NCBI GenBank assembly: GCA_041653995.1
Contig: JBAZEK010000001.1
Location: 1,184,747 to 1,248,746, forward strand
Length of the DNA stretch: 64,000 nt
Direction of reading: 5' to 3'
Source: Dehalococcoidia bacterium
Lineage (GTDB): Bacteria > Chloroflexota > Dehalococcoidia > GIF9 > UBA5629
Shown here: positions 3,748 to 62,509 of the stretch, piece after piece
Position numbering within the stretch: position 1 is the stretch's first letter
Layout: every line of letters starts with the position of its first letter
Notes under the pieces: generated by a model
The model's database searches: none
What the model saw: only the letters and a program-made list of their open reading frames with translations
Told to the model about the DNA's origin: nothing
Position numbers and translations under genes: made by a program

Positions 3748-3760
3748 TCACAGTTACCTT

Positions 3761-5139: not shown

Positions 5140-5221
5140 CTCTTCCACCTGCGGCCTGATTCCGGCTGTTCGTCTCTTTTTGCTTATCACAATCGTCATA
5201 TCAGTACACCATTACCCGTTA

Positions 5222-10831: not shown

Positions 10832-10846
10832 ATCTTCTTTCCCCGC

Positions 10847-46131: not shown

Positions 46132-46256
46132 TTTCCCTGCTGTTACCTGCCTTGCCTTAAAAGTATAGCTTCAGGTGGTTTTGCAGGCAATTTATTTCGA
46201 TTATAATTACTTTTACCTGCTATTAAAAAATGGCATGTGTCAGGAGGATAGTCGGT

Positions 46257-47948
46257 ATGGCGAAGCAGTTGAAAATCGTGATTATCGGCGGCGGAGCCTG
46301 CGGTCCCAAGACCGCCGCCCGCGCGCGCAGGCTGGATGCATCGGCGCAGATCACTATGGTGCAGGATGAGGAACTGATATCCTACGCCGGCTGCGGATTG
46401 CCGTACTATATCTCCGATGTGGTCAAATCCCGCAACGCCCTCCTGGTACGCGATGCCGCCGCCTTTAAAAAGATCAGCAATGTGGATGTACTGACAGCCA
46501 CCCGTGTGGACCGCATCGACCGGTCCGCACACAGGATAGACGTAACTGCACTGGCCGAGAATCGGCAATATTCCATCGACTATGACAAGCTGGTGATAGC
46601 CACAGGTGCAAATCCGGTGGTTCCACCTATAAAAGGCATCGACTTCAAAGGTGTGCACGTGTTGAAACGCGTCCCTGACGCGGATGAGATAAAGGTCCTC
46701 ATAAATGAGTCGGCCTCTAAAAAGGCCGTTGTTGTAGGCGCCGGACTGATCGGAATTGAGATGGTCGAGGCGCTATCGGCACGCGGATTGAAGGTCAGCG
46801 TGGTCGAGGCGCTGGATAAAGTGCTGCCGGGCATACTGGACGAGGAGATCTCGGACCTGCTGGCCGACCATGTTAGAAGCAAGGGAGTGACTCTCAAGCT
46901 GGGGCAAAAAGTGGTGGAATTCAAGGGTGGTAACAATAGAGTAAGCCATGTCATCACGGACAAGGAGACGCTTGAGGCAGACGTGGTCATCTTCGCCATA
47001 GGCGTGCGCCCGAATTCAAAGCTGGCAAAGGAAGCAGGCCTGGAGATCGGTCCATTCGGCGATGTCGTTGTCAACGAGTATTTGCAGACAAGCGATCCCG
47101 ACATCTATGCCGGCGGCGACTGCGTGGCCAATATCAGCATTGTCACCGGCAAGAAGGCATTCGTGCCCCTGGGCTCCACAGCCAACAAGCACGGGCACGT
47201 GATAGCGGCCAACATCACCGGCGGCAGCGAAAAATTCGCGGGCATCGTAAGCACCGCCTGTGTGAAGGTATTCGACTTCAACACCGGGCGTGTGGGACTG
47301 GGAGAGCAACAGGCGCGTGAAGCAGGTTTCGATGTGGTCACTGCCCTCATACCCAATCCGGATAAGCCGATGTATTACCCCGGCAGCAAGGAGGTCATCA
47401 TCAAGCTCATCGTGGACAGGAAAACCCGACGTATACTGGGCGGGCAGGGCACCGGACCCGGCGATGTCATCAAGCGCATCGATGTGCTGGCCACGGCCAT
47501 CACAGCAGGTATGATAGTAGATACGCTGGCCGACCTGGACCTGGCCTACGCTCCCCCCTACAACACGGCGCTGGATGTCCTCCACCACGCGGCCAACCTT
47601 GTGCGAAATAAGCTGGAGGGAAGGACGACGGGCATCAGATACGCCGAGGTAAAAAAAAAGATAGACGCGGGGCATGATTTCGTACTTCTCGATGTGCGAA
47701 GCAAGTACGAGAGCGATAATACCTGGTTGGAGACACCCCAGGTACATTTATTACCGCAAGCGAGACTGTACGACGAAATGGATAAACTTGACAAGAAAAT
47801 CGAGACAGTGGTCTTCTGCCTGCGGGGCGGACGCGCCTACCAGGCCTGCTGCACACTCAAAGGCGCCGGCTTCAAGGATGTTAAATTCGTTGAGGGAAGC
47901 CTGACCTGCTGGTGCGCCGATGATATTTGCGGCGAGCCCGTGCTCTAA
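46257..47948 (+). CDS. CoA-disulfide reductase / NADH oxidase-family flavoprotein with a C-terminal rhodanese domain
   Basis: KIVIIGGGACGPKTAAR (FAD motif), redox Cys in the N-terminal region (YAGCGLPY), a second Rossmann domain (VVGAGLIGIEM), and a C-terminal rhodanese with the CLRGGRA active-site loop. Confidence 0.8.
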   Translation: MAKQLKIVIIGGGACGPKTAARARRLDASAQITMVQDEELISYAGCGLPYYISDVVKSRNALLVRDAAAFKKISNVDVLTATRVDRIDRSAHRIDVTALAENRQYSIDYDKLVIATGANPVVPPIKGIDFKGVHVLKRVPDADEIKVLINESASKKAVVVGAGLIGIEMVEALSARGLKVSVVEALDKVLPGILDEEISDLLADHVRSKGVTLKLGQKVVEFKGGNNRVSHVITDKETLEADVVIFAIGVRPNSKLAKEAGLEIGPFGDVVVNEYLQTSDPDIYAGGDCVANISIVTGKKAFVPLGSTANKHGHVIAANITGGSEKFAGIVSTACVKVFDFNTGRVGLGEQQAREAGFDVVTALIPNPDKPMYYPGSKEVIIKLIVDRKTRRILGGQGTGPGDVIKRIDVLATAITAGMIVDTLADLDLAYAPPYNTALDVLHHAANLVRNKLEGRTTGIRYAEVKKKIDAGHDFVLLDVRSKYESDNTWLETPQVHLLPQARLYDEMDKLDKKIETVVFCLRGGRAYQACCTLKGAGFKDVKFVEGSLTCWCADDICGEPVL

Positions 47949-47991: not shown

Positions 47992-50253
47992 ATGGCAGCT
48001 GACAGTTCACATATACGACGGCAAGCTGCGCGCAGCGGATTCACTCTGTGCGAGGCTATAATACGGTCGTTCTCCCGGCTATCGATCAAAGAGGGCGCGC
48101 CCTGGCGCACACTGCTGGCCGTTTCGGCCAACTCTCAGGCCGTGGTTGAGGCGGCCCTGCTTGCGGCCAGGCAGGCGGAATGCCCCATATTTTTCGCAGC
48201 TACGCTCAACCAGGTCGACATCGATGGGGGCTATACTGGTTGGGATCATGCGAGCTTCGCTACCCTGGTACGGCGCACTGCCGGAAAAACGGATTTCAAA
48301 GGCCCCATTCTGCTCGGGGTAGACCATGCCGGACCCTGGCTGCGCGACAGGCACACCAGTGAAAAATGGCCTTACAGCCGTACAATGAAAGCGGTCGAAA
48401 TATCTCTGGAATCGGCTATTGCAGCAGGATTCGACCTGCTTCATATCGATCCCACCGTTGACCGGGGCCTTCATCCCGGCGGAACACTGCAACTTAACAC
48501 GATCATTGACAGGACCGTCCAGCTGATCAAGCACTGCGAGTCCTTCCGCATCAAACACAGACTGCCCCCGGTGGCATACGAGGTAGGCACCGAGGAGGTC
48601 AAGGGCGGGCTGGCAGATGAAAACATGTTCAGCAATTTCCTGTCTGGCCTGCGTATAAGGATGACGCAGGAAGGACTGAGCCGGGCATGGCCGTGCTTTA
48701 TCGTGGGTAAAGTTGGAACGGACCTGGACACGACCCTGTTCAGCCCGCAGATGGCGCAGGAGCTTTATGATATCGCACGCCACTATAACCTGGTGCTGAA
48801 GGGACATTACACCGACAACGTGGAAAATCCGGTCGCCTACCCGGCCAGCAGAATGGGGGGCGCCAACGTCGGACCCGAATTTACCGAAGTCGAATGCGAT
48901 GCCCTTTTCGAGCTTGAATCGAGGGAAAAGTCTGCCCATGTCAGGAACGCTGCAGAGCCTTCGATATTTAAAGAATCTCTCGCACAGGCTGTGATCCGGT
49001 CCGGCAGATGGCGTAAATGGCTTCACCCGGAGGAGGCCGGCAAGCCGTTCGACGCGCTACCCGCCGAAAGGCAAAACTGGCTGCTCAAGACAGGCGCGCG
49101 CTACATCTGGACGGACAGGAAGGTAAGGGAAGCGCGCAAACGCCTGTATGCAAATCTGGTAAAAGACGGTTTCGATCCCCACCGGTATGTGGTCGAGCGC
49201 ATCTCGCAGCAGATATTGAAATACTTCCGCGCCTTCAACCTGTATGGCTCAATCCCCGTGCTTGAAAAGGAATTCGAGCGGCGCAGAAGGCTCCCGTTCT
49301 GGGACGAAGGGCAGGTGCTGGCCGCGGGAGAATTGATCGTAGAGATCATGCGCCCGTCGGTGGACATGCCTCTGGATACAACCGGACGATTCGTGGGGCC
49401 ATTCCCCAGCGGCGCACCCGCCATCTTCGCGGATGCCTCCGCGCGTATAGGGAAACGGACAGGCTTTGTGGGTTCGCTGGGACAGGACGGCTTCGGCCGT
49501 CTGCTACTGAGTAGGTTCACGAATGACGGCATTGACCACAAACTCATAGCTTCAATCAAGGGCCGGCCCACGGGCTGCGCCTTTGTGGCCTATGACAGGG
49601 ATGGCGGGCGTAACTTTATCTTTCACATCGCGGGCACCGCCTCCGACCGCCTGCCTTCTATCTCACGGGCCGTGAAATATGCAAGGTCTTTCCGCCACCT
49701 GCACCTTATGGGCTGCTCGCTCTCCATAAGCAGCGCCATAAGAGAAGCCTGTATGGCGATGGCGGAGGCTATCAAAGAGTCTGGCGGCAGCGTCAGCCTC
49801 GATCCCAATTTACGGCCGGAATTGCTCTCAGCCGGGGAGTGCAGAAACATACTGTTGCCCGTTGTTCGCCTGGCAGATATCGTTCTTCCCAGCGGGAACG
49901 AGGCCGGCCTGCTGGTGCATGAACCCGATATCGATACTGCCTGCCTCCGCCTGATCGAGTTGGGAGTGAAGATCGTGGTGCTTAAAAAAGGCGACAGCGG
50001 CTGCCGCGTGTTCACCCGCGAATCCACCTTCGACGTCCCAGGTTTCAAAGTAAATGCCGTCGACCCCACCGGCGCGGGCGACTGCTTCGATGCCGGTTTC
50101 ATCAGCGGCTACCTCGATAATCTGCCGCTTTACGAGACAGCCAGACTGGCCAATGCCATGGGCGCTCTGGCCGCATCCAGACTGGGACCGATGGAGGGCG
50201 CCTTCAGCCTCAACGAGGTTATGAACTTTATAAAAAAACAGCGGCGGGATTAA
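47992..50253 (+). CDS. Fusion protein: an N-terminal GatZ/KbaZ-family domain (tagatose-bisphosphate aldolase non-catalytic subunit / AgaZ) and a C-terminal PfkB-family carbohydrate kinase
   Basis: N-terminus aligns with E. coli GatZ (ATLNQVDIDGGYTGW, GVDHAGPW, GFDLLHIDPT, YEVGTEEV). C-terminus has the PfkB signature DPTGAGDCF and a GG dipeptide region. Confidence 0.7.
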   Translation: MAADSSHIRRQAARSGFTLCEAIIRSFSRLSIKEGAPWRTLLAVSANSQAVVEAALLAARQAECPIFFAATLNQVDIDGGYTGWDHASFATLVRRTAGKTDFKGPILLGVDHAGPWLRDRHTSEKWPYSRTMKAVEISLESAIAAGFDLLHIDPTVDRGLHPGGTLQLNTIIDRTVQLIKHCESFRIKHRLPPVAYEVGTEEVKGGLADENMFSNFLSGLRIRMTQEGLSRAWPCFIVGKVGTDLDTTLFSPQMAQELYDIARHYNLVLKGHYTDNVENPVAYPASRMGGANVGPEFTEVECDALFELESREKSAHVRNAAEPSIFKESLAQAVIRSGRWRKWLHPEEAGKPFDALPAERQNWLLKTGARYIWTDRKVREARKRLYANLVKDGFDPHRYVVERISQQILKYFRAFNLYGSIPVLEKEFERRRRLPFWDEGQVLAAGELIVEIMRPSVDMPLDTTGRFVGPFPSGAPAIFADASARIGKRTGFVGSLGQDGFGRLLLSRFTNDGIDHKLIASIKGRPTGCAFVAYDRDGGRNFIFHIAGTASDRLPSISRAVKYARSFRHLHLMGCSLSISSAIREACMAMAEAIKESGGSVSLDPNLRPELLSAGECRNILLPVVRLADIVLPSGNEAGLLVHEPDIDTACLRLIELGVKIVVLKKGDSGCRVFTRESTFDVPGFKVNAVDPTGAGDCFDAGFISGYLDNLPLYETARLANAMGALAASRLGPMEGAFSLNEVMNFIKKQRRD

Positions 50254-50279
50254 TAATCCCGCCGCCGTCCCTTCGGCGT

Positions 50280-51968
50280 TTATTTGCCCTTTGCCCGGTC
50301 CTCCTCCTGCAGCACGCGCCGCAGCACCTTGCCCACCATAGTCTTGGGCAGAGCATCGCGGAACTCCACATGCTTGGGCACCTTGTAGGCAGTCAGCTTC
50401 TCACGGCAGAAGACCTGTATCTCCTCGACCGTGCATGATTGGTCTGTTCTCAATACCACCCATGCTTTCACGGCTTCGCCCTGCGCGGCATCTGGCACGC
50501 CGGCCACACCCACCTCGAGCACGGCGGGATGCTGAGCGATGATCTCCTCGATCTCCACCGGGAAGACCTGATGGCCGCTGGGCTTGATCAGGTCCTTCTT
50601 GCGGGATGTTATAAAGAGATATCCGTCCTCATCCAGGTAACCTATATCGCCGGTATACAGCCAGCCATCGCGCAGCATCTCTGCAGTAGCTTCAGGACGG
50701 TTCCAGTAACCCTGCATGATGTGTGGCCCCCTGGCTATGATCTCGCCGGCGTCACCGGCCTGGAGTTCAGTTTTTCCCGTATCTATATCGACTATCTTGA
50801 TGACGGTATCAGGGGTGGGCATGCCAACCGCCCCCTCCTTCCATTTGCCCAGGAACGGACCCATAGCGAGCACGCCCGATTCCGTAAGGCCGTAAGCTTC
50901 CACAATCTTGCCGCCCGTGACCACCTCCCACTGCCGCTTGGTCTCAGGCAGAAGGGGAGCCGCAGCAGCCACCGACGACTTCATGGTCTTGAAATCGATC
51001 TTGCCCGACTTGACCTCGGGCCTGTTCATAAGCCCGATGAAGATGGCCGAGATGGCGGGGAAGAAGGCCGGTTTGACCTTTTTAATCGTGGCCAGAACAT
51101 CCTTTACCTCGCGAGGATTGGGGATAAGAGCCGTGGGATAACGGCCTGCGATGGCTGTAGACAGCAAAATTACATTGCCGTAAACATGGAAGAAAGGCAT
51201 TAGCAACACGAGCACATCCGTCCAATCCGTTGCCAGCGGCTTGGACCAGGAATGTATCTGCCGGCCGTTCATGAATATGGCCTCATGGCTCAGCATCACG
51301 GCTTTGGGCGTGCCCGTCGTGCCGCCACTGAACAGCAGCAGGCCGGTATCTTTACCGCTCACCTTGACGTCAGGTTTCTTATCGCCGGCATGTTTCTTCA
51401 TCAGGTCCTGCAGCCAGATGTCGTTTCCCTGCACCTTTTCCAGATATTGTCCCTGTTTTTTCTCCATCAGCAGAGTGAACATCAGTTTAATAAAAGGCGA
51501 CAGGTATTCTTTGACGCTGGTAACGATAAGCAGTCGCAGCTTGGTGCGTCCCTGGATTTTCTTCACCAGGTCGTAGAATGCAGTCAGCACAATTGCAACT
51601 TCGGCGCCGCATTCCTTGAGCGCAAATTCGAGCTCCGCCTCGCTGTAGAGCGGGTTAACCGGCACGGCGATAGCTCCGGCTTTCCAGATGGCAAGCTGGC
51701 TAATGACTATATTGGGTGAGTTGGGCATCAGCATGACAACGCGGTCGCCCTTCTTAACCCCCTGAGCCGCAAGGCCGGCAGCCAGTATATCGCTCAGGTG
51801 GTCGACTTCCTTGTAGGTCATCCACCTGCCCTTGAACCAGATCATTTTATGCGCGGGCCTCTCCCGGGCAACATCCGCGACGTCTTCGAAAAGCTTCTTA
51901 TCGGGATAGGGTTGTAAAGTTTTGGGTACACCCTTGTCGTAATGCTTGAACCATGGATAGTCTGCCAT
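50280..51968 (-). CDS. Long-chain-fatty-acid--CoA ligase (FadD-like AMP-dependent synthetase), paralog 1 of 7
   Basis: YPWFKHYDKGVP N-terminus, LFSGGTTGTPKAV (AMP motif), YGLTE, TGDIGYLDEDGY, and a C-terminal YKVPKHVEFRDALPKTMVGKVLRRVL matching E. coli FadD. Start at the ATG with a GGAGGAG SD. Confidence 0.85.
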   Translation of the reverse strand: MADYPWFKHYDKGVPKTLQPYPDKKLFEDVADVARERPAHKMIWFKGRWMTYKEVDHLSDILAAGLAAQGVKKGDRVVMLMPNSPNIVISQLAIWKAGAIAVPVNPLYSEAELEFALKECGAEVAIVLTAFYDLVKKIQGRTKLRLLIVTSVKEYLSPFIKLMFTLLMEKKQGQYLEKVQGNDIWLQDLMKKHAGDKKPDVKVSGKDTGLLLFSGGTTGTPKAVMLSHEAIFMNGRQIHSWSKPLATDWTDVLVLLMPFFHVYGNVILLSTAIAGRYPTALIPNPREVKDVLATIKKVKPAFFPAISAIFIGLMNRPEVKSGKIDFKTMKSSVAAAAPLLPETKRQWEVVTGGKIVEAYGLTESGVLAMGPFLGKWKEGAVGMPTPDTVIKIVDIDTGKTELQAGDAGEIIARGPHIMQGYWNRPEATAEMLRDGWLYTGDIGYLDEDGYLFITSRKKDLIKPSGHQVFPVEIEEIIAQHPAVLEVGVAGVPDAAQGEAVKAWVVLRTDQSCTVEEIQVFCREKLTAYKVPKHVEFRDALPKTMVGKVLRRVLQEEDRAKGK

Positions 51969-52013
51969 TAAGATCTCCTCCATTATTTATGTTTATTATT
52001 TATAAGTGTGCTG

Positions 52014-53675
52014 CTACGATGGTTTTTTAGCCTTTTCCTCCTCCTGCAACACCCTCCTCAGTATTTTACCAACGAGTGTCTTGGGCAATGCGTCGCGGAA
52101 CTCGATAAACTTGGGCACCTTGTAGGCTGTTAATTTGTCCTTGCAGAAAGATTGAAGCTCTTCTGCAGAGACATTCTGTCCCGGACGCAGGATCACCCAT
52201 GCCTTAACAGCCTCAACCTGTTTCGGATCCGGTATCCCCGCCACGCAGGCCTCTGCTACAGCGGGATGAGTGGTGAGTATCTCCTCCACTTCCTTCGGCC
52301 AGACCTGGTGGCCGCTGGGCTTGATGAGATCTTTCTTGCGCGAGGTCAGGTAGAGGTAACCGTCCTTGTCCATATAGCCGATGTCACCCGTATACAGCCA
52401 GCCGTCCCTGATCATCTCCGCTGTGCCTTTGGGATTGTTCCAGTAGCCCTGCATGATCTGCGGGCCTTTGCCGACTACCTCGCCTTCCTCGCCGTAAGGT
52501 AACTCCTTATCAGGATCCGCGACATCTACGAATTTAATTATGACATCGGGCAGGGGCAGGCCGACCGCGCCTTCCTTCCATTGACCCTTGAGCGGGCCGA
52601 CAGTAAACACAACTGTGGATTCTGTAAGGCCATAGGCCTCGAGAATGGGGGCGCCCGTCATAGCTTCCCAGCGCTGCTTGGTTTCGACCATCAGCGGTAT
52701 GGCCCCTGAGAGGCAATATTTCAGGCAGGTGAAGTCCACCTTCCCCGCCGCGACTTCAGGGTGCGCCATCAAGCCGATGAACAACGTAGGCACACCGGGC
52801 ATAGAGCCGGGCCGAACCTTCCTGATGGTGTCGATCACGTCATCGAGGTCACGCGGATTGGCCACAACTGCCAGCGGGCTGCGAACACAGAGGGAACTGG
52901 CGATAACCCCGTTAAAGCCATAGGCATGGAACAGGGGCATGAGCGCCATCGTGTAGTCGTCGTGAGTTATCAGGCCCTGTTTGTTCCAACTATTGGTCTG
53001 AAGGCCGACCGCCGCCATGTTCCTGAAGGAAAGCATAGCGCCCTTGGGAGCACCGGTTGTTCCGCCGCTGAACAAAATGATAGCGGTATCATCCATCCTG
53101 GGTTTTACAACAGGAGCGGGATCCTTGGCGTGTTTGTCCATGAACTCGTCCATCCACACATCGCCCTTCTCAAGCTGCACGGTATGCGGCTTCTTTGCTT
53201 CCGGAAGCATGTAGTCTTCGAGCGAGGTGGCGATAACCTTTTTCAGCTTGGTGCGCGACTGTACCTTCTTGATATTTGCATACAGCAGGTCCCAGACAAT
53301 GATTATCTCCGCATCTACAGTGGTCAGCGCATGTACCAGTTCATCCTCGTTATACAAAGGATTAAGCGGAACAAAAATGGCGCCGGCCTTCATAGTGCCG
53401 AAGGCGGCTATAAGCTGCTGAGGTGTATTGAGTAACATGGTGGCCACGCGGTCTCCCTGCTTCACGCCGTTGGCGATCAGCGCCGAAGCCATTATCTCGA
53501 AAAGCCTGCTTGCCTCCTTGTAAGAGAAATACCTTCCCTTGAAATACATGAATGTGTGATCCGGCATCTCGCGGGTTGTGTCCGCTATGACATCAAGTAA
53601 AGTGATTTCCGGATATGGCGCCAGGGAATGGGGCACCCCTGCATCGTAAGATTTGTACCATGGATAATCCGCCAC
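52014..53675 (-). CDS. FadD-like acyl-CoA synthetase, paralog 2
   Basis: Same motif set (LFSGGTTGAPKG, YGLTE, TGDIGYMDKDGY, GKILRRVL). GTG start preceded by GAGGAGG. Confidence 0.8.
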   Translation of the reverse strand: MADYPWYKSYDAGVPHSLAPYPEITLLDVIADTTREMPDHTFMYFKGRYFSYKEASRLFEIMASALIANGVKQGDRVATMLLNTPQQLIAAFGTMKAGAIFVPLNPLYNEDELVHALTTVDAEIIIVWDLLYANIKKVQSRTKLKKVIATSLEDYMLPEAKKPHTVQLEKGDVWMDEFMDKHAKDPAPVVKPRMDDTAIILFSGGTTGAPKGAMLSFRNMAAVGLQTNSWNKQGLITHDDYTMALMPLFHAYGFNGVIASSLCVRSPLAVVANPRDLDDVIDTIRKVRPGSMPGVPTLFIGLMAHPEVAAGKVDFTCLKYCLSGAIPLMVETKQRWEAMTGAPILEAYGLTESTVVFTVGPLKGQWKEGAVGLPLPDVIIKFVDVADPDKELPYGEEGEVVGKGPQIMQGYWNNPKGTAEMIRDGWLYTGDIGYMDKDGYLYLTSRKKDLIKPSGHQVWPKEVEEILTTHPAVAEACVAGIPDPKQVEAVKAWVILRPGQNVSAEELQSFCKDKLTAYKVPKFIEFRDALPKTLVGKILRRVLQEEEKAKKPS

Positions 53676-53763
53676 TTTAAACCTCCTCAAACAATATTTA
53701 CGGCATATTTTAAACGCGCTGCTAATTATACTAAATTAACCGGGCGCTCTATATCCCCGACTT

Positions 53764-55407
53764 TTACTTGCTTTTCTCCTCATCCTGTAGAATTCTACGC
53801 AGTACCTTACCCACGAATGTTTTGGGCAGCTCTTTACGGAACTCGAAGTGCTTGGGAACTTTGTAGCCGGTGAGTTTCTCCCTGCAATATTTCTGCAATT
53901 CCTCTGCAGTCACGCTTTTCCCCTCTTTCAGCACGACCCAGGCCTTGACGGCTTCCATCTGTCTGGGATCAGGTATCCCGCCCACACATACTTCAGCCAC
54001 GGCCGGATGCTCCTGGAGAATCTCTTCCACCTCACGCGGCCAGACCTGGAAGCCACCGCATTTTATCAGGTCCTTCTTGCGAGACGTCAGAAAGATATAG
54101 CCATCCTCATCCATGTAGCCGATATCGCCGGTGTAAAGCCAGCCGTCCCGCAGAATCTCTTTGGTCTCTTCCGGCCGTTTCCAATAGCCCTGCATGAGCT
54201 GCGGCGCCTTGATAATAATCTCTCCCGGCTGCCCGACAGGCATACCTGAAGACCCGCTGTCTATATCAACGATACGTACAATGGTATCCGGCAGGGGCAG
54301 GCCTATGGAGCCCTCCTTCCATTTACCCTTGGCAGGAGTGGTAAGCATGGCCATGCCGCTCTCAGTGAGTGCGTAACCCTCGGTCAACCGGCCGCTGATA
54401 TGCTTCTCGAACTGCTCCTTGGTCTCACGCATCAGCGGCGCTGCGCCCGATGTAGCCATGCGAATGGTTTTGAGATCACCCATTTTGAGATCCGGATATT
54501 CCAGCATGGAGATGAACATGGTGGGAGCGGCCCCCATATTAGTAATACCTTGATTCTTAATAGTTTCAATCATGCCCTTGATATCACGCGGATTGGCGAT
54601 GAGCACCGAGATATTATGCTGAACCAGCGCCATCCCGAAGCTGGCATAGATGCCGAAAGCATGGAAGAGCGGCAGAGGCACAAGGAATTTTTCGTCCCAC
54701 CAGAGTGAAATCTCGCGGAACCAGGCCTCCACCTGCATACCTGTGATCACCAGGGACTTATGGCTCTCCATAACACCCTTGGGAGTGCCCGTGGTGCCTC
54801 CCGAGAACAGGATCAAGGCTGTATCGTCCGGCGCCACTTTTACGCCGGGGACCGGTTTTCCTGCATATTTCCTGCTAAGGTCGAGCCACCAGTCGTCGCC
54901 TGGCTCAATAGCGGTCGCCGCCTTCTCTTTATTCGGCACGGTGTAATCATCGAATTCAGCCAGGATAACGTTGCGTACGCTGGTTTTCTTCTGCAGCCTT
55001 TTGACCATGGGATACCACAGGTTTAGCACCACCGCTGTTTCAGCATCGATATCATTTAACCTCGCTTCCAGTTCGAACTCGGTGTAGAGTGGATTGAGCG
55101 GCACCACAATAGCGCCCAGCTTCCAGGCCGCGAAGAAAATAATATACTCCTGGGGGCAGTTAAGGAAGAGCACGGCTATGCGGTCACCCTTCTTCACACC
55201 CATGGAAGCCAGCGCCGCAGCCATAGCATCGCTCTCACTGACGATCTCTTTATAGCTGAGCTTCCTGTCCTGGAAGATGATCATGGGATAATCAGGACGC
55301 TCGTTTTTAGCTTCCAGCAAGACATCCATAATGGTCTTACGGGGGTATGGCTCAAGAGAGCGGGGTACGCCGGGATCATAGCTTTTGTACCATAGATGTT
55401 CGGTCAA
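53764..55407 (-). CDS. FadD-like acyl-CoA synthetase, paralog 3
   Basis: LFSGGTTGTPKGV, YALTE, TGDIGYMDEDGY, GKVLRRIL. TTG start with a GAAGGA SD. Confidence 0.8.
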   Translation of the reverse strand: MTEHLWYKSYDPGVPRSLEPYPRKTIMDVLLEAKNERPDYPMIIFQDRKLSYKEIVSESDAMAAALASMGVKKGDRIAVLFLNCPQEYIIFFAAWKLGAIVVPLNPLYTEFELEARLNDIDAETAVVLNLWYPMVKRLQKKTSVRNVILAEFDDYTVPNKEKAATAIEPGDDWWLDLSRKYAGKPVPGVKVAPDDTALILFSGGTTGTPKGVMESHKSLVITGMQVEAWFREISLWWDEKFLVPLPLFHAFGIYASFGMALVQHNISVLIANPRDIKGMIETIKNQGITNMGAAPTMFISMLEYPDLKMGDLKTIRMATSGAAPLMRETKEQFEKHISGRLTEGYALTESGMAMLTTPAKGKWKEGSIGLPLPDTIVRIVDIDSGSSGMPVGQPGEIIIKAPQLMQGYWKRPEETKEILRDGWLYTGDIGYMDEDGYIFLTSRKKDLIKCGGFQVWPREVEEILQEHPAVAEVCVGGIPDPRQMEAVKAWVVLKEGKSVTAEELQKYCREKLTGYKVPKHFEFRKELPKTFVGKVLRRILQDEEKSK

Positions 55408-55421
55408 CTCAGCATCCTTCA

Positions 55422-55451
55422 GACCGGTCCCGGCAGCCGCCGGGACCGGTC
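55422..55451. terminator. Perfect 13-bp GC-rich stem-loop (GACCGGTCCCGGC...GCCGGGACCGGTC) between paralogs 4 and 3, flanked by an A/T-rich tract
   Basis: Read directly. On the plus strand it is followed by TTCATTATTTTT. On the minus strand it follows the paralog-4 stop. Confidence 0.45.
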
Positions 55452-55482
55452 TTCATTATTTTTAAAATTTAAAAATAACCTG

Positions 55483-57171
55483 CTATTTTGCTTTGGCTTT
55501 CTCCTCCTCCACCAGTACCCTTCTCAGCACCTTGCCCACCATAGTTTTGGGCAACTCGGTTCGGAACTCGACAAATTTAGGTATCTTGTAGGCCACCAGC
55601 TTCTCCTTGCACCAGGCCTGTATCTCCTCCGCTGTAGCGGTCTTGCCCGCCTCCATCACCACCCAGGCCTTAACCGCCTCACCCTGCTTGGCATCAGGTA
55701 TGCCGGCCACGCAGGCTTCGGCCACATCAGGATGTGCAGCTATGACTTCCTCGACCTCCCGCGGCCATACCTGGAAACCGCTGGGCTTGATCAGGTCCTT
55801 TTTACGCGAGGTGATGAAAAGATAACCATCCTCATCCAGATACCCGATATCGCCGGTGTAGAGCCAGCCATCCCGCAGCATCTCCTTGGTCTCCTCAGGC
55901 CTGTTCCAGTATCCCACCATGAGCTGCGGCGCCTTAATAACTATTTCGCCTTCCTGTCCGGCGGGTAAATCGCCCTCACCCGTCTCCAAATCGCCGATCC
56001 TGGCAATCACATCGGGCAGCGGCATGCCGGTGGAACCCTCCTTCCATTTGCCCAGGTAAGGTGTAACGCAGGAGGCCATGGTAGCCTCGGTCATGGCATA
56101 GCCTTCGACTATCCGGCCGCCCGTCAATTCCTCAAAGCGTCTCTTGGTATCGGCCAGCAGCGGAGCGGCGCCGGACACACAGAACTTCATCGATTTGAAA
56201 TCGACTTTCCCGGCTTTGACCTTGGGATGCTCCAGCAGAGCAATATAAAGGGCGGGAACTGCCGGGAAGAAAGTCGGTTTATCATGTTGAATAGTAGCTA
56301 TCAAATCTTCGCGGTCGCGAGGATTGGGAACGAGGGACAATGTCACATGGCATACTATGGCGGTGCTCATAACACCATAGGTCGCGTATACATGGAAAAG
56401 CGGCAGGCAGGCCATGATGACATCCTTGTAGCTCTCGATCATGCCACCGAACCACGCAGCATACTGCAGGGCTGTTATCACCATGGAATGATGCGTGCCT
56501 ACCACGCCCTTGGGGGTGCCCGTGGTGCCGCCGCTGAACAGTATGAGTGCAGGATCCTGCGGTGCAACCTTCACATCCGGCCGCCCGGCGCCGGCATACT
56601 GCTTGATCAGGTCCGTCATCCACAAATCTCCCTGCTCCAGTTCTACATAGTGACCTTCCTTTTTCTCCTTGACCAGCGTGAACAACACCTTAAGCACCGG
56701 CGGGAGGTAATCCTTGATGCTGGTAGCTATGACCAGCTTTACGCTGGTGCGCGGCTGTATCTTCTTAAACTGCTTGTAGAACATGGTCAGAACGACTACA
56801 GTCCCAGCCCCGCAATCTTTGAGGGCGTGCTCCAGCTCGCTTTCCGTATACATGGGATTTAAATGCACCAGTATGGCGCCGACCTTCCAGGCCCCCCAGC
56901 GGCAGATAAGCGCCTGCGGGCAGTTGGGCATGAGAAGCGCGACCCTGTCGCCTTTCTTGACGCCTTTGGCAGCCAGGGCAGCCGCGAATTCATCGCTCAG
57001 CTTCTGAAACTCAGCATAGGATATCTTCCTCTTCTTGAAAAGCATCATGGGATAGTCGGGTTTCTCTTTGACTGCCTCATCCACGTAATCTATGAGGGTT
57101 TTCTGGGGATATGGTTCCAGTGTGTGGGGTACACCGGGATCGTAATTCTTTAACCAGCGATATTCTGCCAT
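55483..57171 (-). CDS. FadD-like acyl-CoA synthetase, paralog 4
   Basis: MAEYRWLKNYDPGVP..., LFSGGTTGTPKGV, YAMTE, TGDIGYLDEDGY, GKVLRRVL. ATG with a GGAGG SD at -8. Confidence 0.85.
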   Translation of the reverse strand: MAEYRWLKNYDPGVPHTLEPYPQKTLIDYVDEAVKEKPDYPMMLFKKRKISYAEFQKLSDEFAAALAAKGVKKGDRVALLMPNCPQALICRWGAWKVGAILVHLNPMYTESELEHALKDCGAGTVVVLTMFYKQFKKIQPRTSVKLVIATSIKDYLPPVLKVLFTLVKEKKEGHYVELEQGDLWMTDLIKQYAGAGRPDVKVAPQDPALILFSGGTTGTPKGVVGTHHSMVITALQYAAWFGGMIESYKDVIMACLPLFHVYATYGVMSTAIVCHVTLSLVPNPRDREDLIATIQHDKPTFFPAVPALYIALLEHPKVKAGKVDFKSMKFCVSGAAPLLADTKRRFEELTGGRIVEGYAMTEATMASCVTPYLGKWKEGSTGMPLPDVIARIGDLETGEGDLPAGQEGEIVIKAPQLMVGYWNRPEETKEMLRDGWLYTGDIGYLDEDGYLFITSRKKDLIKPSGFQVWPREVEEVIAAHPDVAEACVAGIPDAKQGEAVKAWVVMEAGKTATAEEIQAWCKEKLVAYKIPKFVEFRTELPKTMVGKVLRRVLVEEEKAKAK

Positions 57172-57221
57172 GCAATCAACCTCCAAATCAATATATTCTA
57201 ATGCCGTGACTATATGTTTAA

Positions 57222-57251
57222 GCAGTCCCCGGCTGTGCAGCCGGGGACTGC
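57222..57251 (-). terminator. Perfect 13-bp stem-loop (GCAGTCCCCGGCT-GTGC-AGCCGGGGACTGC) just downstream of the paralog-5 stop
   Basis: Read directly. Followed on the minus strand by UUAAACAUAUAG. Confidence 0.45.
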
Positions 57252-57264
57252 CTCGTTCACAGAC

Positions 57265-58956
57265 TTACTTCTTGCTTTTTGACGCCTCTTCCTCCTGCAG
57301 AACCCTTCTCAGCACCTTGCCGACCATTGTCTTGGGCAGGTCGCTGCGGAACTCCACGAACTTGGGTATCTTGTAGGCGACCAGCTTCTCCTTGCACCAG
57401 GCCTGTATCTCCTCCGCCGTAGCCGTCTTACCGGCCTCCAGCACTACCCAGGCTTTCACAGCTTCACCCTGCTTGGCATCGGGAATACCGGCCACGCTGA
57501 CTTCCGCCACCGCTGGATGGCTGCTGATTACCTCCTCGACTTCCCTCGGCCATACCTGGAAGCCGCTGGGCTTGATCAGGTCCTTTTTACGCGATGTGAT
57601 GAAAACGTAACCGTCATCATCCATATAACCTACATCGCCCGTATAGAGACAGCCGTCACGCAGCATCTCTTTAGTCTCCTCAGGCCGGTTCCAGTACCCC
57701 TTCATCAGCTGCGGGGCCTGGAAAACGATCTCCCCCTCCTTGCCGGCTGGCATATCGCCTTCGCCGGTCTCAATGTCGCCGATCCTGATTATGACGTCCG
57801 GGAGCGGCATCCCCACAGACCCCTGCTTCCAGGTTCCGCGATAAGGCGTGCAGCAGCAGGCCATGGTAGACTCGGTCAACCCGTAGCCCTCAACGATACG
57901 GCCGCCGGTGAGGTCTTCGAAACGCTTCTTTGTCTCGTACAGCAACGGGGCTGCGCCGGAGTTGCAGCATTTCATTGAGCTGAAATCCACCTTACCTGTT
58001 TTGACTGCCGGATGCTCCAGCAACGCTATGAACATGGCAGGCACGGCGGGGAAGAACGAGGGCTTATCATGATTGATGGTAGCGACCACATCGTCGCGGT
58101 CGCGGGGATTGGGTACCAGAGACATCGCCGCATGCCCGACGATGGCCGTGCTCATGACCGCATACGTGGCGAACGAGTGGAAAAGCGGCAGCACCAGCAT
58201 CATCACATCTTTGTAAGGTTCGACTATCTCACCGAACCAGCTGCTGAATTGCAGACCTGTGATTACCTGCGAATGGTGCGTGCCCACTACACCCTTGGGT
58301 GTGCCTGTCGTCCCGCCGGAGAAAAGAATGAGGGCGTCGTCGCCCGGCAGCACTTTCACGTCGGGCCGTTTGGCTCCGGCCTGGGCTTTAATCAGGTCGG
58401 TCAGCCAGAAATCGCCGGGCTGCAACACGATGCGATGGCCTTCCTTTTTCTCTTTGACCAGTGTAAATAGAACCTTGAGTACGGGCGGAAGGTAATCCTT
58501 GATGCTGGTCGCTATAATCAGCTTCAGTTTGGTCCTCGACTGTAATTTCTTAACTGTATTGTAGAACAGGGTCAGCACCACTACAGTCTCTGCGCCGCAG
58601 TCCTTAAGGGCATGTTCGAGTTCGGACTCTGTATACATGGGGTTCATATGTACCAGGATAGCGCCCGCTTTCCAAGCGCCCCAACGGCAGATAATGGCTT
58701 GCGGGCAATTAGGCATGATCAGGGCTACGCGGTCTCCCTTTTTTACGCCTTTGGCTACCAGCGCAGCCGCAAATTCATCGCTGAGCTTCTGTATCTCAGC
58801 ATAGGACATCTTCCTCTTCTTAAAAAGAACCATGGGGTAATCGGGATGTTCTCTCACGGCATCATCCACATAATCTACAAGCGTCTTCTGGGGATAGGGT
58901 TCCAGCGTGGCCGGGACCCCTTTGTCATAGTTTTTTAACCATCTTTTGTCGGACAA
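57265..58956 (-). CDS. FadD-like acyl-CoA synthetase, paralog 5 (about 85% identical to paralog 4)
   Basis: MSDKRWLKNYDKGVP and the same motifs. TTG start with an AAGGAGG SD at -8. Confidence 0.85.
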   Translation of the reverse strand: MSDKRWLKNYDKGVPATLEPYPQKTLVDYVDDAVREHPDYPMVLFKKRKMSYAEIQKLSDEFAAALVAKGVKKGDRVALIMPNCPQAIICRWGAWKAGAILVHMNPMYTESELEHALKDCGAETVVVLTLFYNTVKKLQSRTKLKLIIATSIKDYLPPVLKVLFTLVKEKKEGHRIVLQPGDFWLTDLIKAQAGAKRPDVKVLPGDDALILFSGGTTGTPKGVVGTHHSQVITGLQFSSWFGEIVEPYKDVMMLVLPLFHSFATYAVMSTAIVGHAAMSLVPNPRDRDDVVATINHDKPSFFPAVPAMFIALLEHPAVKTGKVDFSSMKCCNSGAAPLLYETKKRFEDLTGGRIVEGYGLTESTMACCCTPYRGTWKQGSVGMPLPDVIIRIGDIETGEGDMPAGKEGEIVFQAPQLMKGYWNRPEETKEMLRDGCLYTGDVGYMDDDGYVFITSRKKDLIKPSGFQVWPREVEEVISSHPAVAEVSVAGIPDAKQGEAVKAWVVLEAGKTATAEEIQAWCKEKLVAYKIPKFVEFRSDLPKTMVGKVLRRVLQEEEASKSKK

Positions 58957-59019
58957 GATAAGAACCTCCTTAGATTTGTTATTATGATTAAGCTTTCAAC
59001 GCCTAATTACCTCGAAGTA

Positions 59020-60720
59020 CTACTTCGCCGCTTTTTGCCTTGCTATTTCCTCCTCAACCAGTACACGTTTCAGGATCTTGCCCACCAGTGTCTTGGGTAA
59101 CTCGGCCCTGAATTCCACGTGCTTGGGCACTTTATAGGCTGTTAGTTTCTCACGGCAATGCGCCTGTATCTCTTCAGCTGTCGCGGTCTCCCCCTGACGC
59201 AGCACGACCCAGGCCTTGACAGCCTCGACCTGGTAAGCGTCGGGGATACCCGCCACTCCTACTTCCGCTACCTTTGGATAGGTGCTGATACATTCCTCTA
59301 CCTCGCGCGGCCAGACCTGGAAGCCGCCGGGCTTGATCAATTCCTTCTTGCGCGACGTGATGAAGAGGCAACCTTCCTCGTTGAGATAGCCGATATCACC
59401 CGTGTACAGCCAACCATCGCGAATCATCTCCGCCGTGGCCTCCGGCCTGTTCCAGTAACCCACCATGATCTGCGGGCACCTGGCAACGATCTCACCCTCC
59501 GTCCCCAGCGGCATGTCTTTCTCACCGGTCTCAACGTCAACTATTCGCAGAATAACGTCCGGCAGGGGAATGCCGGCCGATCCGGGCGTCCACTTGCCCT
59601 CCACCGGGCCCAGGGTAATGGCCGCGGTCACCTCGGTCATGCCATAGCCCTCGATCAGCTTGCCGCCTGTCAATTCCTCAAAACGCCGCTTGGTCTCAGG
59701 CAGCAGCGGCGCCGCAGACGCCACGCAGAGCTTCATAGATTTAAAATCAACCTTGCCCGCCTTTACAAGCTTATGCTCCAGCAGTGCAATGAACATTGTA
59801 GGGACGGCAGGGAAGTATGCAGGTTTCACCTTGTTTATGGTCTTCACCACATCGTCACGATCTCGCGGGTTGGGGACAACTGCAAGTGTATTATGCCCCA
59901 TGATGGATGTGCCCATCACCCCGGCAAATCCATAAACATGGAAGAGCGGCATGATCATCATAACCACATCATCCCATTCCGTCAGAACACTATCGTTCCA
60001 GACCTTGAGCTGCCAGGCCTCTGCAACCAGGCATTTATGTGTGATGATTACACCCTTGGGAACGCCGGTAGTGCCTCCACTGAAAAGCAGCAGCGCAATA
60101 TCTTCGGATACAGGCTTGTGGTCAGGAATAGCATCACCGGCGTGCTTGCTCATGAGCTCGGCCATCCAGAGGTCGCCTGGCTGGAGAGTAATTCGGTGGC
60201 CTTCCTTCTTCTCCTTGAGCAGCGTAAACATAGTCGCAAGGAACGGCGGAAGATATTCCTTGATATTGGTGGCAATGACCAGCCTGAGATTTGTCTGCGG
60301 TTGTATCTTCTTGACCGTGGCATAAAAAGGTGTCAACACGATGGCAACCTCGGCCCCGCATTCCTTAATCGAGTGCTGTAATTCATGCTCGGTATACATC
60401 GGATTGAGCGGCACAGGTATAGCGCCGGCCTTCCAGGCTGCAAACGAGCTGATAAAGCCCTGCGGGCAGTTGGGCAGGAGTACGGCAACGCGGTCGCCTT
60501 TCTTAACTCCGTTAGCCTTGAGGGCAGCGGCAAACACCGAATAGAGCCTCACGAGCTCGCTGTAGCTGATGTTCCTGTCTTTGAAAATCATGAACCTGTG
60601 ATCGGGCCTCTTCTTGGCGGCCTCCTCAACCACGTCTAAAAAGGTGACCTGCGGGTATGGTTCCAGGCTGTGCGGCACCCCCGCATCATAGCTTTTAAAC
60701 CACTGATATGATTCTGTCAT
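59020..60720 (-). CDS. FadD-like acyl-CoA synthetase, paralog 6
   Basis: LFSGGTTGVPKGV, YGMTE, TGDIGYLNEEGC, GKILKRVL. ATG with a GGGAGG SD. Confidence 0.8.
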   Translation of the reverse strand: MTESYQWFKSYDAGVPHSLEPYPQVTFLDVVEEAAKKRPDHRFMIFKDRNISYSELVRLYSVFAAALKANGVKKGDRVAVLLPNCPQGFISSFAAWKAGAIPVPLNPMYTEHELQHSIKECGAEVAIVLTPFYATVKKIQPQTNLRLVIATNIKEYLPPFLATMFTLLKEKKEGHRITLQPGDLWMAELMSKHAGDAIPDHKPVSEDIALLLFSGGTTGVPKGVIITHKCLVAEAWQLKVWNDSVLTEWDDVVMMIMPLFHVYGFAGVMGTSIMGHNTLAVVPNPRDRDDVVKTINKVKPAYFPAVPTMFIALLEHKLVKAGKVDFKSMKLCVASAAPLLPETKRRFEELTGGKLIEGYGMTEVTAAITLGPVEGKWTPGSAGIPLPDVILRIVDVETGEKDMPLGTEGEIVARCPQIMVGYWNRPEATAEMIRDGWLYTGDIGYLNEEGCLFITSRKKELIKPGGFQVWPREVEECISTYPKVAEVGVAGIPDAYQVEAVKAWVVLRQGETATAEEIQAHCREKLTAYKVPKHVEFRAELPKTLVGKILKRVLVEEEIARQKAAK

Positions 60721-60756
60721 CAATTCAACCTCCCTGCATAATTATTACTGTGGCAG

Positions 60757-62463
60757 CTATGTGTGATTGGTTTCCCCTCCCTGTTTGCTTGTCTCTTCCT
60801 CGATCAATACCCTCCTCAGAATCTTGCCTATCTGGGTTTTAGGCAGATTAGTTTTAAACTCGATATATCGCGGCACCTTATAGGCCGACAGTTTGGATTT
60901 GCAGTGCTCCCTGAGCTCCTCCGCCGTACAGGTCATTCCTGCATTCAGCACCACCCACGCCTTCACTGCTTCGCCCTGGTACTGATCGGGCACTCCGGCC
61001 ACACTGGCCTCCATAACCGCCGGGTGCTCATGTAATATCTCCTCTACCTCGCGCGGCCAGACTTGAAAGCCGCTGGTCTTGATTATATCTTTCTTGCGGC
61101 TGTGCAAGAAGAGGTGACCATCGTTGTCCAGATAACCAATATCACCGGTATAAAGCCATCCATCCCTGAGCATATCGGCCGTTTCCTGCGGTCGCTTCCA
61201 GTAGCCCGCCATAAGATTCGGCGCCTTAAAACATATCTCGCCGAGCTCGCCGGCTTTCATATCGCCGCGGCCGGTCTCGGAATCCACTATCTTAATGACG
61301 ACATCGGGCAACGGCATGCCAACCGAGCCTTCCTTATTAACGCCCATAATAGGATTGAGCGTTGCGGCCTGCATGGTCTCCGTCATGGCATAGCCTTCCA
61401 GGAGCCGTCCGCCTGTCATATTCTCAAACTGTTTCTTCGTATCCGCCATAAGCGGGGCTGCACCCACAATGCATATCTTCATGCCCGACAGCTTTACCTT
61501 GCCCGATTTCACCAGAGGATGATTCATAATCGCGATATAAAACGTAGGAACGCCGGGCATGAAGGCCGGCTTATACTTTTGGATACTTTTAACCACATCG
61601 GTGACATCGCGTGGATTCGGGATAAGGATGCAGGAAGAACGGTTGATCATAGCCGTGCCCAGCGCGCCCGCACATCCAAAAACATGGAAGAGCGGCATAG
61701 TCAGGGCCACCCTGTCCTCCCATTTCTCCAGTACAGGACCGAGCCAGGCGTTAATCTGCATTGCAGTCATTATGAGGGCGCCGTGAGTACCCACGGCGCC
61801 CTTGGGAGTGCCGGTTGTACCACCGCTGAAAAGTATCACGGCCGCATCCTCCGGCCTGACTTCAATATCAGGCCTGGGATCGTTCTTATGTTGTCGCAGC
61901 AGCTCCTGAAACCACACATCCCCCTTTTGCAGGGAAATCCTGTAGCCCTCCTTCTTCTCCCTGGCCAGCGTGAAAAGCAGACCGAGATGCGCCGGCAGAT
62001 ATTCCTTGATACTGGTGGCGATAACGGTCCGGATAGTGGTATCGGCCTGAATATTCTTCACAGCCTGGTAAAAAGGATTAAGCACGATCACAGCAGAGGC
62101 GTCCACCTCGGTCAACGCATGCTTCAGCTCGTGTTCGGTATAAAGAGGATTGATAGGGACCGCTATTGCCCCTGCCTTCCAGATGCCCTGGAATGCCAGT
62201 ACCATCTGCGGTGAATTGGGAAGGAGCAGGGCTACACGCTCCCCCTTTTTTATTCCGAGAGCAACCAGGCCTGCGGCCAGGGCGTCGCTCTGCCGCACAA
62301 AGTCGTGATATAGAAGCCTGTGTCCTTTGAAATAGAACATGGCGCGGTAGGGTTTTGCTTTAGCCGACTCATCGACCACCTCGATCATGGTCGTTCCTGG
62401 ATAAGGCATAAGTGTGCGAGGCACACCTTCATCATAATTCTTAAACCAGGGGTAGTTATCCAT
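60757..62463 (-). CDS. FadD-like acyl-CoA synthetase, paralog 7 (first in the transcription direction)
   Basis: MDNYPWFKNYDEGVP, LFSGGTTGTPKGA, YAMTE, TGDIGYLDNDGH, GKILRRVL. Confidence 0.8.
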   Translation of the reverse strand: MDNYPWFKNYDEGVPRTLMPYPGTTMIEVVDESAKAKPYRAMFYFKGHRLLYHDFVRQSDALAAGLVALGIKKGERVALLLPNSPQMVLAFQGIWKAGAIAVPINPLYTEHELKHALTEVDASAVIVLNPFYQAVKNIQADTTIRTVIATSIKEYLPAHLGLLFTLAREKKEGYRISLQKGDVWFQELLRQHKNDPRPDIEVRPEDAAVILFSGGTTGTPKGAVGTHGALIMTAMQINAWLGPVLEKWEDRVALTMPLFHVFGCAGALGTAMINRSSCILIPNPRDVTDVVKSIQKYKPAFMPGVPTFYIAIMNHPLVKSGKVKLSGMKICIVGAAPLMADTKKQFENMTGGRLLEGYAMTETMQAATLNPIMGVNKEGSVGMPLPDVVIKIVDSETGRGDMKAGELGEICFKAPNLMAGYWKRPQETADMLRDGWLYTGDIGYLDNDGHLFLHSRKKDIIKTSGFQVWPREVEEILHEHPAVMEASVAGVPDQYQGEAVKAWVVLNAGMTCTAEELREHCKSKLSAYKVPRYIEFKTNLPKTQIGKILRRVLIEEETSKQGGETNHT

Positions 62464-62509
62464 TTCGACTCCGATCCGCATCATCAGCGGGCGAGGTGTT
62501 CCCGTTTAT

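Follow-up and report, generated by a model that had tools for sequence, protein, structure and literature searches.

GatZ and KbaZ have long been regarded as non-catalytic aldolase partners. Rhizobia and Agrobacterium possess a tagatose pathway with a tagatose-6-phosphate (Tag-6-P) 4-epimerase, which is TagE, a PF08013 protein, in S. meliloti and Atu3167 in A. tumefaciens. Citing Kohlmeier 2019 and Wichelecki 2015, PMC9720028 describes the route of these two species: tagatose is phosphorylated by a tagatose kinase, and a Tag-6-P epimerase then forms fructose-6-phosphate (Fru-6-P), with no aldolase. In the tagatose cluster of E. coli phylogroup B2, Tag-6-P goes to the bisphosphate and then to an aldolase (PMC9720028). 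Fru-6-P/Tag-6-P 4-epimerase activity has been reported for E. coli GatZ and KbaZ (PMC11907403), and the same 4-epimerisation is performed by the class II aldolase FbaA (PMC5434028). A GatZ-family Fru-6-P 4-epimerase of the Chloroflexota member Caldilinea aerophila (Dai et al. 2020) was measured to convert Fru-6-P to Tag-6-P, as cited in PMC11907403 and PMC12992531. Here we analyzed a gene of an uncultured Dehalococcoidia bacterium that encodes a GatZ-like domain and a PfkB-family kinase domain in a single polypeptide. The gene lies in a stretch of 64,000 nucleotides (assembly GCA_041653995.1, contig JBAZEK010000001.1, positions 1,184,747 to 1,248,746), which is called the window throughout.

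Comparison with described systems and proposed function

The rhizobial TagD ('TagK')/TagE pathway resembles the window gene in using the same two protein families for consecutive, aldolase-free steps. However, the rhizobial pathway consists of two proteins, whereas the window gene encodes one polypeptide in the opposite order, with the epimerase-like domain first. On R. etli p42c, 4 bp separate the kinase gene from the GatZ-like gene, and the pair lies amid polyol dehydrogenases and an ABC transporter, without an aldolase. In contrast, the window gene has neither an ABC transporter nor a polyol dehydrogenase nearby. E. coli GatZ/KbaZ (2fiq) and the N-terminal domain of the window protein share Pfam family, fold, and the proposed Zn ligands and base. 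GatZ is, however, encoded beside the GatY aldolase and phosphotransferase system genes, and neither is found beside the window gene. The 'ribokinase II' structures PDB 3iq0/3k9e belong to the same PfkB subfamily as the window kinase and have the motif GE[IL]LVEIM...GP[FY]PSGAPAIF. We infer that 3iq0 is the product of ECOLIN_RS18675, from the tagatose kinase cluster of E. coli phylogroup B2. The pathway and both protein families are thus already known. New are the fusion as such, its reversed order of domains and the divergent GatZ-like clade, of which no description turned up in the literature searched.

We propose that the fusion protein probably combines two activities, those of a ketohexose kinase (most likely for D-tagatose) and of a Tag-6-P 4-epimerase, which would lead to Fru-6-P without an aldolase. 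In a first step, the C-terminal PfkB domain would transfer phosphate from ATP to C6 of free D-tagatose, or of a very similar ketohexose, to form Tag-6-P. In a second step, the N-terminal metal-dependent TIM barrel would invert C4 by a retro-aldol/aldol reaction. The resulting Fru-6-P would enter glycolysis, and a tagatose-bisphosphate aldolase would not be needed. The proposal is supported by the kinase type, the known route with a kinase and a GatZ-family epimerase, the invariant catalytic residues, the Rosetta-stone pairing of both domains and a second fusion. Further support comes from the lack of aldolase and SIS genes at loci with a TagK-like kinase, from a fusion with a PGI-like domain and from sugar-related gene contexts in relatives. 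Joining both domains might also be of advantage in itself, for example by passing Tag-6-P directly from one domain to the other. Such a protein would be a plausible aldolase-free entry into glycolysis for a galacto-configured ketohexose in uncultured Dehalococcoidia, and the misleading labels 'non-catalytic aldolase subunit' and plain 'PfkB kinase' would be corrected. A first-pass annotation of the gene had considered a novel ketose phosphate pathway. This is not needed, since a kinase plus a GatZ-family epimerase without aldolase is the published S. meliloti/A. tumefaciens route.

The fusion is a real and conserved single gene

Pfam recovered PF08013 (GatZ_KbaZ-like) at residues 41-392 (E 3e-30; 105.6 bits, passing the gathering threshold of 26.7) and PfkB PF00294 at residues 471-734 (E 1e-44). 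The C-terminal PfkB kinase with a DPTGAGD motif, as described in the first-pass annotation, was thereby confirmed. The coordinates of all features are listed in Table 1. An identical 753-aa protein was found on contigs of two further assemblies (ENA ERZ27247358 and Logan SRR18595300). In a search of 5.8 billion proteins, ~46 clusters of full-length two-domain proteins (749-767 aa, 55-91% identity) were detected, named as Dehalococcoidia or Chloroflexi metagenome-assembled genomes (MAGs). A genome scan added one fusion from Sumerlaeota and one from Chloroflexia. Among 36 aligned fusions, R431, P435, F436 and G440 at the junction are invariant, and the linker LEKEF-RR--LPFW-EG is common to the Dehalococcoidia and Sumerlaeota fusions. 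In a split gene pair of an Opitutaceae MAG, the first product ends and the second starts at the linker point of the fusion.

The identical protein in two other assemblies, the ~46 full-length clusters and the conserved linker show that both domains are encoded by one real and conserved gene. That two genes were merged by a frameshift in sequencing or assembly, a concern raised in the first-pass annotation, has next to no probability. Homologs reach down to 55% identity, the linker is shared across phyla, and stop codons are present in both other reading frames across the junction. Nothing was found in favor of a frameshift here; only one relative looks frameshifted itself. This Chloroflexia homolog (L020:6001-8251, a MAG from a long-read assembly) is split over several frames: tblastn matched its kinase half in two overlapping pieces, and the open reading frame of its N-terminal domain is truncated. 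Either this homolog is a pseudogene or its sequence contains a set of homopolymer errors.

The fusion was also modeled with AlphaFold from the 36-sequence alignment. The predicted local distance difference test (pLDDT) values were mostly 85-95 in the N-terminal domain and below 55 for residues 434-550, so that the model is uninformative on the inter-domain geometry.

The kinase domain resembles free-tagatose kinases

The kinase half scored 293 bits on the NCBIfam model NF049991 ('tagatose kinase'), and the next-best family followed 151 bits behind at 142 bits. R. etli TagK, which is 40% identical to the window kinase, scored 544 bits on the same model. The N-terminal signature of the window kinase, in the general form GE[LI][LI]VEIM...GP[FY]PSGAPAIF, is common to rhizobial TagK and to the adjacent kinases of Atribacterota, Opitutaceae and Sumerlaeota. 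In the alignment it is missing from the PfkB of Bacteroidales operons and from a true 1-PFK-type kinase. A DPN motif, SGNE (with the NXXE-type Glu) and DPTGAGD are all shared with R. etli TagK, and DPTGAGD is present in every TagK-like kinase aligned. The closest solved structure is that of E. coli 'ribokinase II' (PDB 3iq0, E 6e-62), which was also matched by Foldseek. Because of the lead of NF049991, the identity to TagK and the shared N-terminal motif, the kinase was assigned to the group of free-tagatose kinases, of which it appears to be a divergent member or a sister. Most likely, the kinase would produce Tag-6-P instead of consuming it.

An identity as LacC/PfkB/FruK-type ketose-phosphate kinase was tried and rejected on model scores. 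TIGR03168 (1-PFK/LacC/PfkB/FruK) matched with 49.6 bits, below its cut-off of 216.4, and only at residues 644-732, which is the ATP-binding, C-terminal third of the kinase. A reference member (L024) reached 245 bits over its full length. The first-pass annotation had paired the GatZ-like domain with a ketose-phosphate kinase, for example a Tag-6-P kinase. The idea that both domains act jointly on a tagatose-type ketose phosphate stands, but the kinase type had to be revised.

The GatZ-like domain belongs to a divergent PF08013 clade

In Foldseek searches, the N-terminal domain matched E. coli GatZ (2fiq; E 2.7e-15, 434 columns, target TM-score 0.74), the GatZ-like protein 3txv of S. meliloti (E 3e-14) and the class II fructose-bisphosphate aldolase 7nc7 (TM-score 0.78). 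The alignment along the length of GatZ, noted before from the sequence, hence covers the whole fold, at an identity of ~23-24%. On TIGR02810, the domain scored 86.8 bits, far from the equivalog cut-off of 568.8, compared with 588 bits for R. etli TagE and 704 bits for E. coli GatZ. In contrast, it is ~50% identical to standalone members of its own clade, and a similar identity of ~50% is seen among the members themselves. Members were found in Atribacterota, Bacteroidales, Anaerolineae, Caldilinea, Armatimonadota, Glassbacteria, Gemmatimonadales, Bathyarchaeia and others, with at least 581 matching stretches in the genome scan. By sequence, the N-terminal domain belongs to a deep, separate PF08013 clade outside the canonical GatZ/AgaZ/TagE group. 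A clade member from a Caldilinea MAG (L079) is 50% identical to the window domain. No C. aerophila protein was returned in a search by that species name. Thermophilic Fru-6-P 4-epimerases are also reported, in patents, for Anaerolinea thermophila, Dictyoglomus thermophilum and Caldithrix abyssi.

For GatZ, Asp87 has been proposed as the base and His88, Glu171 and His257 as Zn ligands (PMC11907403). The corresponding residues of the window protein are invariant in the clade. Two other positions are specific to it. At the position of GatZ Glu44, Ala was found in 75 of 78 clade members and Val or Thr in the remainder, while GatZ, TagE and two further fusions described below (P0263 and P0283) have Glu. 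The position of GatZ Lys279 is occupied by Asn in 78/78 members and by Lys in the canonical GatZ/TagE type.

The domain could in principle be non-catalytic and serve as a scaffold, a sugar-phosphate-binding regulator or a stabilizer, with the kinase as the sole enzyme. This would agree with the historical 'chaperone' view of GatZ/KbaZ that is still found in database names, and GatZ had likewise been called a non-catalytic partner in the first-pass annotation. The view is outdated, as more recent work reports 4-epimerase activity for GatZ, KbaZ and TagE (PMC11907403, PMC9720028). Moreover, the proposed metal ligands and the base are kept throughout the clade. A non-catalytic role is thus very improbable, and we propose that the N-terminal domain acts as a Tag-6-P/Fru-6-P 4-epimerase.

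Other fusions with GatZ-like domains

Independent fusions were searched for by scoring against 1.84 billion representatives. Two proteins, P0263 (739 aa) and P0283 (763 aa; L091:8001-10292), showed the reverse order, a TagK-like kinase followed by a canonical GatZ/TagE-type domain. Their kinase halves scored 379 and 415 bits on the TagKinase model, respectively. The PF08013 halves scored 587 and 564 bits on TIGR02810 and kept Glu44 and Lys279. Like the window fusion, both combine kinase and PF08013 domain in one polypeptide, but they differ in domain order and in PF08013 clade. Therefore, a TagK-like kinase has been joined to a PF08013 domain at least twice, independently. The window type and the reverse-order type, as two independent Rosetta-stone fusions, back the recent view of GatZ-family proteins as enzymes. 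P0283 is represented by seven cluster members from separate assemblies. It stands at the end of an amino-sugar cluster with DeoR, a ROK kinase, an ABC transporter, a NagA-like deacetylase and a NagB-like deaminase, with no aldolase in view.

A different arrangement was found in P0242 (827 aa; L092:254-2737), in which a HAD phosphatase and a cupin PGI-like domain are joined to a GatZ-like domain that belongs to the window clade, at 45% identity, and retains the catalytic residues. On paper, this protein could convert glucose-6-phosphate via Fru-6-P and Tag-6-P to tagatose. The same scheme of phosphorylation, epimerization and dephosphorylation has been engineered for tagatose production. Because P0242 fuses a PGI-like domain to a clade member, it ties the clade to Fru-6-P. 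P0242 is known from a single sediment-metagenome contig, where its only neighbors are transposases.

Three further proteins carry a GatZ-like domain of the window clade. P0310 (961 aa) has it joined to a B12-binding radical SAM domain. In P0346 (927 aa) it occurs with an IspD-like cytidylyltransferase and LicD, a combination suggestive of a role in making surface polymers. P0362 is a multidomain protein of 3159 aa.

Gene context across the clade

For the context survey, 80 loci of the clade were used. A TagK-like kinase was scored at ≥40% identity, and neighbors were recorded within 6 kb. Such a kinase was present in 22/80 loci. It is fused in Dehalococcoidia, other Chloroflexota and Sumerlaeota. 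Unfused, it is adjacent to the GatZ-like gene in eight loci and abuts or overlaps it in one more. In the Opitutaceae MAG, the kinase follows directly downstream, in the order of the fusion; the choice of start codon decides whether the two genes abut or overlap by up to 4 nt. The opposite order, with the kinase gene directly upstream of the clade member, was seen in Caldatribacterium-type Atribacterota and in a Bathyarchaeia MAG. These separate neighboring kinases scored 296-322 bits on the tagatose-kinase model. In a neighbor-joining tree, the fusions and the Opitutaceae pair form one subclade and the other pairings fall on different branches.

Neither an AgaS-type SIS gene nor a class II aldolase was detected within 6 kb in any of the 22 TagK-associated loci. 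For the aldolase, this compares with 16/34 among the other loci with full flanks (Fisher p = 0.0016, the loci not being independent). The window itself encodes no class II aldolase over its 64 kb (tblastn best E 7.5), in line with the earlier remark that no GatY/KbaY is nearby, and no AgaS-type isomerase.

A second layout, termed aga-like (DeoR, AgaS, GatZ-like, generic PfkB), was found in 32 loci, mostly of Bacteroidales and several with an amidohydrolase. A class II aldolase is present in 20 of these 32 SIS-type loci, and one further aldolase locus has no detectable SIS gene. None of the 32 contains a TagK-like kinase. The Bacteroidales operons (L036, L046, L052, L073, L075, L077, L078, L086-L088 and others) comprise genes for DeoR, an AgaS-family SIS isomerase, the divergent-clade GatZ-like protein, PfkB, a class II aldolase, Amidohydro_2 and a melibiase-like glycosidase. 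Their PfkB is generic ribokinase-like, neither of the LacC type nor of the TagK type. Since tagatose kinase and AgaS both make Tag-6-P, this compound would be the common input to the clade.

Tentatively, and with a little less than even confidence, we suggest that the clade consists of stand-alone Tag-6-P/Fru-6-P 4-epimerases in at least three settings and that tagatose metabolism is wider in uncultured anaerobes. The settings would be a tagatose kinase, adjacent or fused; AgaS-type amino-sugar deaminases; and the fusion with a PGI-like domain and a HAD phosphatase, which would be a natural route from glucose-6-phosphate to tagatose. Tagatose/Tag-6-P metabolism would then be under-recognized in Dehalococcoidia, Atribacterota, Anaerolineae, Bacteroidales and Bathyarchaeia. 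The clade would also be a large set of candidate Fru-6-P/Tag-6-P 4-epimerases, an activity sought for enzymatic tagatose production. Two of the candidates occur in natural fusions, one with a kinase and the other with a phosphatase and an isomerase.

Further sugar-related genes were seen at the loci with a kinase. The Sumerlaeota fusion is preceded by a LacI regulator and GH42 beta-galactosidases, and the Opitutaceae pair by a sugar ABC transporter and a FucI-like isomerase. Fusions of other Chloroflexota have a KDG/KDGal kinase and a KDPG aldolase in place of the array of ligase genes found in the window. On the opposite strand, these loci encode a LarA-type epimerase, a lactonase-like hydrolase and a Zn-dependent polyol/sugar dehydrogenase. 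Opitutaceae (L029:735-10902) and Sumerlaeota (L003/L004/L019) share a cluster with 51-75% protein identity across the two phyla. Besides the GatZ-like/TagK unit, it encodes a FucI-like isomerase, a cupin resembling ureidoglycolate lyase, a PF04199 'cyclase' and a transketolase-like protein in which PDH-E1 alpha and beta are fused, and in Sumerlaeota also a lipoyl carrier. Genes for the FucI-like, cyclase, E1/transketolase-like and cupin partners were found neither in the window nor in any Dehalococcoidia locus. In Caldatribacterium (L005/L006), the TagK-like/GatZ-like pair is divergent beside a bacterial microcompartment locus (1963-8856 next to 9050-11299). This locus encodes BMC and EutN shell proteins, an aldehyde dehydrogenase, PTAC, a DeoC aldolase, RpiB and an RnfC-like protein.

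Alternative substrates and partners

Several observations weigh against a tagatose kinase/Tag-6-P 4-epimerase. The kinase score of 293 bits is below the equivalog cut-off of 420, therefore the substrate could differ from tagatose. The N-terminal domain is only 22% identical to R. etli TagE and 24% identical to E. coli GatZ, whereas these two are 44-45% identical to each other. Ala69 and Asn292 differ from Glu44 and Lys279, positions that are treated as family-defining in PMC11907403, and no biochemically characterized member of this PF08013 clade was found. The role of the kinase half is not plain from context in every lineage; around P0283, for instance, the cluster already encodes another kinase, of the ROK family, along with a NagB-like deaminase. 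In the window, no sugar transporter, polyol dehydrogenase or glycosidase is located beside the fusion, and its sole stable neighbor is an unrelated-looking gene for a CoA-disulfide reductase (CoADR) with a rhodanese domain. Furthermore, Bacteroidales clade members with ~48% identity share operons with a class II aldolase, and no column of the alignment was found to tell members associated with a kinase from those associated with an aldolase (90% consensus threshold). Substrate identity is the main uncertainty, because neither half reaches its equivalog cut-off and the clade came without a characterized member.

The same logic of a kinase followed by C4 epimerization might apply to a different sugar, with a different product. 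This could be another ketohexose, a ketose derived from a hexitol or, by an isomerase, from an aldose, or an amino- or deoxy-ketose. The kinase score below the cut-off would fit, as would the clade-specific residues, since Ala69 and Asn292 are at two substrate-side positions. In addition, the closest relatives outside Chloroflexota accompany the FucI-like isomerase, the cupin, the 'cyclase' and the E1/transketolase-like protein. However, every informative context points to Tag-6-P or Fru-6-P, namely the AgaS-type operons, the PGI-like fusion and the GH42 galactosidases, and the tagatose-kinase model is ahead of all other kinase models by more than 150 bits. We regard a different sugar as unlikely.

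A second alternative is that the PfkB domain converts Tag-6-P to tagatose-1,6-bisphosphate. The GatZ-like domain would then help a GatY/KbaY-type aldolase encoded elsewhere, or would itself be the aldolase. The Bacteroidales clade members beside PfkB and class II aldolase in aga-like operons are compatible with this, the more so as no residue splits their type from the fused type and the visible sequence is 64 kb of a genome. Yet the kinase of the Bacteroidales operons represents another type of PfkB, with 99 bits on the TagKinase model and 26% identity to the window kinase, and the 1-PFK/LacC/PfkB model reaches only the C-terminal third of the latter. Due to the kinase subfamily and the consistent absence of an aldolase from the TagK-associated loci and the window, a Tag-6-P kinase with an aldolase partner is disfavored and, in our view, improbable. 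As no alignment column separates the two groups, a single chemistry for the whole clade is likely, and for the window protein we retain a D-tagatose kinase and Tag-6-P 4-epimerase as the probable function.

Genomic neighborhood in the window

Table 1. Features of the fusion gene and its surroundings; positions refer to the window
Feature	Position	Strand	Description
Promoter-like site	46180..46207	+	upstream of two-gene unit; 10/12 matches to TTGACA/TATAAT; consensus match only
CoADR-like gene	46230..47948	+	C-terminal rhodanese domain; Pfam Pyr_redox_2 and Rhodanese
Whole fusion gene	47992..50253	+	one uninterrupted open reading frame, ATG start, 753 aa plus stop codon
GatZ/KbaZ-like domain, residues 1-432	47992..49287	+	class-II-aldolase-like TIM barrel, divergent PF08013 clade
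Ala69	48196..48198	+	position of GatZ Glu44; clade signature
Asp111-His112	48322..48327	+	GatZ Asp87 (proposed base) and His88 (proposed Zn ligand); invariant in clade
Glu201	48592..48594	+	GatZ Glu171 (proposed Zn ligand); invariant in clade
His272	48805..48807	+	GatZ His257 (proposed Zn ligand); invariant in clade
Asn292	48865..48867	+	position of GatZ Lys279; clade signature
Inter-domain linker, ~residues 433-440	49288..49311	+	RRLPFWDE; short, conserved among fusions, low pLDDT
PfkB-family kinase domain, residues 441-753	49312..50250	+	tagatose-kinase-like subfamily
Signature, residues 446-479	49327..49428	+	GELIVEIM...GPFPSGAPAIF; alignment with related kinases
DPTGAGD, residues 691-697	50062..50082	+	PfkB anion-hole and catalytic Asp motif; invariant in 36 fusions
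Terminator-like hairpin	50263..50278	+	10 bp past fusion stop codon; consensus match only
Seven tandem paralogous AMP-binding genes	50280..62484	-	acyl/aryl-CoA ligase-like, 547-575 aa; convergent with fusion

The fusion gene is flanked by the CoADR-rhodanese gene and the ligase array, as stated in the first-pass annotation. The CoADR-like product scored 443 bits on TIGR03385, below the cut-off of 579. Its gene has the same orientation as the fusion, the gap of 44 bp between them contains no terminator-like site, and both are probably co-transcribed. The CoADR-rhodanese gene was located directly upstream in 9/9 Chloroflexota fusion loci with upstream DNA, even where the downstream genes differ; it was recorded in the window, L009-L012, L015-L017, L020 and L032. 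We know of no metabolic link between this protein and the fusion, and the adjacency may be lineage synteny only.

The gene order of the window is kept in close Dehalococcoidia relatives, and the AMP-binding ligase array is kept in related Dehalococcoidia contigs. Two genes on the reverse strand, at 44332-45129 and 45211-46131, encode products of 265 and 306 aa without a Pfam match and are syntenic in related Dehalococcoidia. The 306-aa product begins with a signal-peptide or lipoprotein-like sequence. The G+C content is 61-63% over the first 12 kb of the window and ~50-58% after, with a compositional step near 12 kb.

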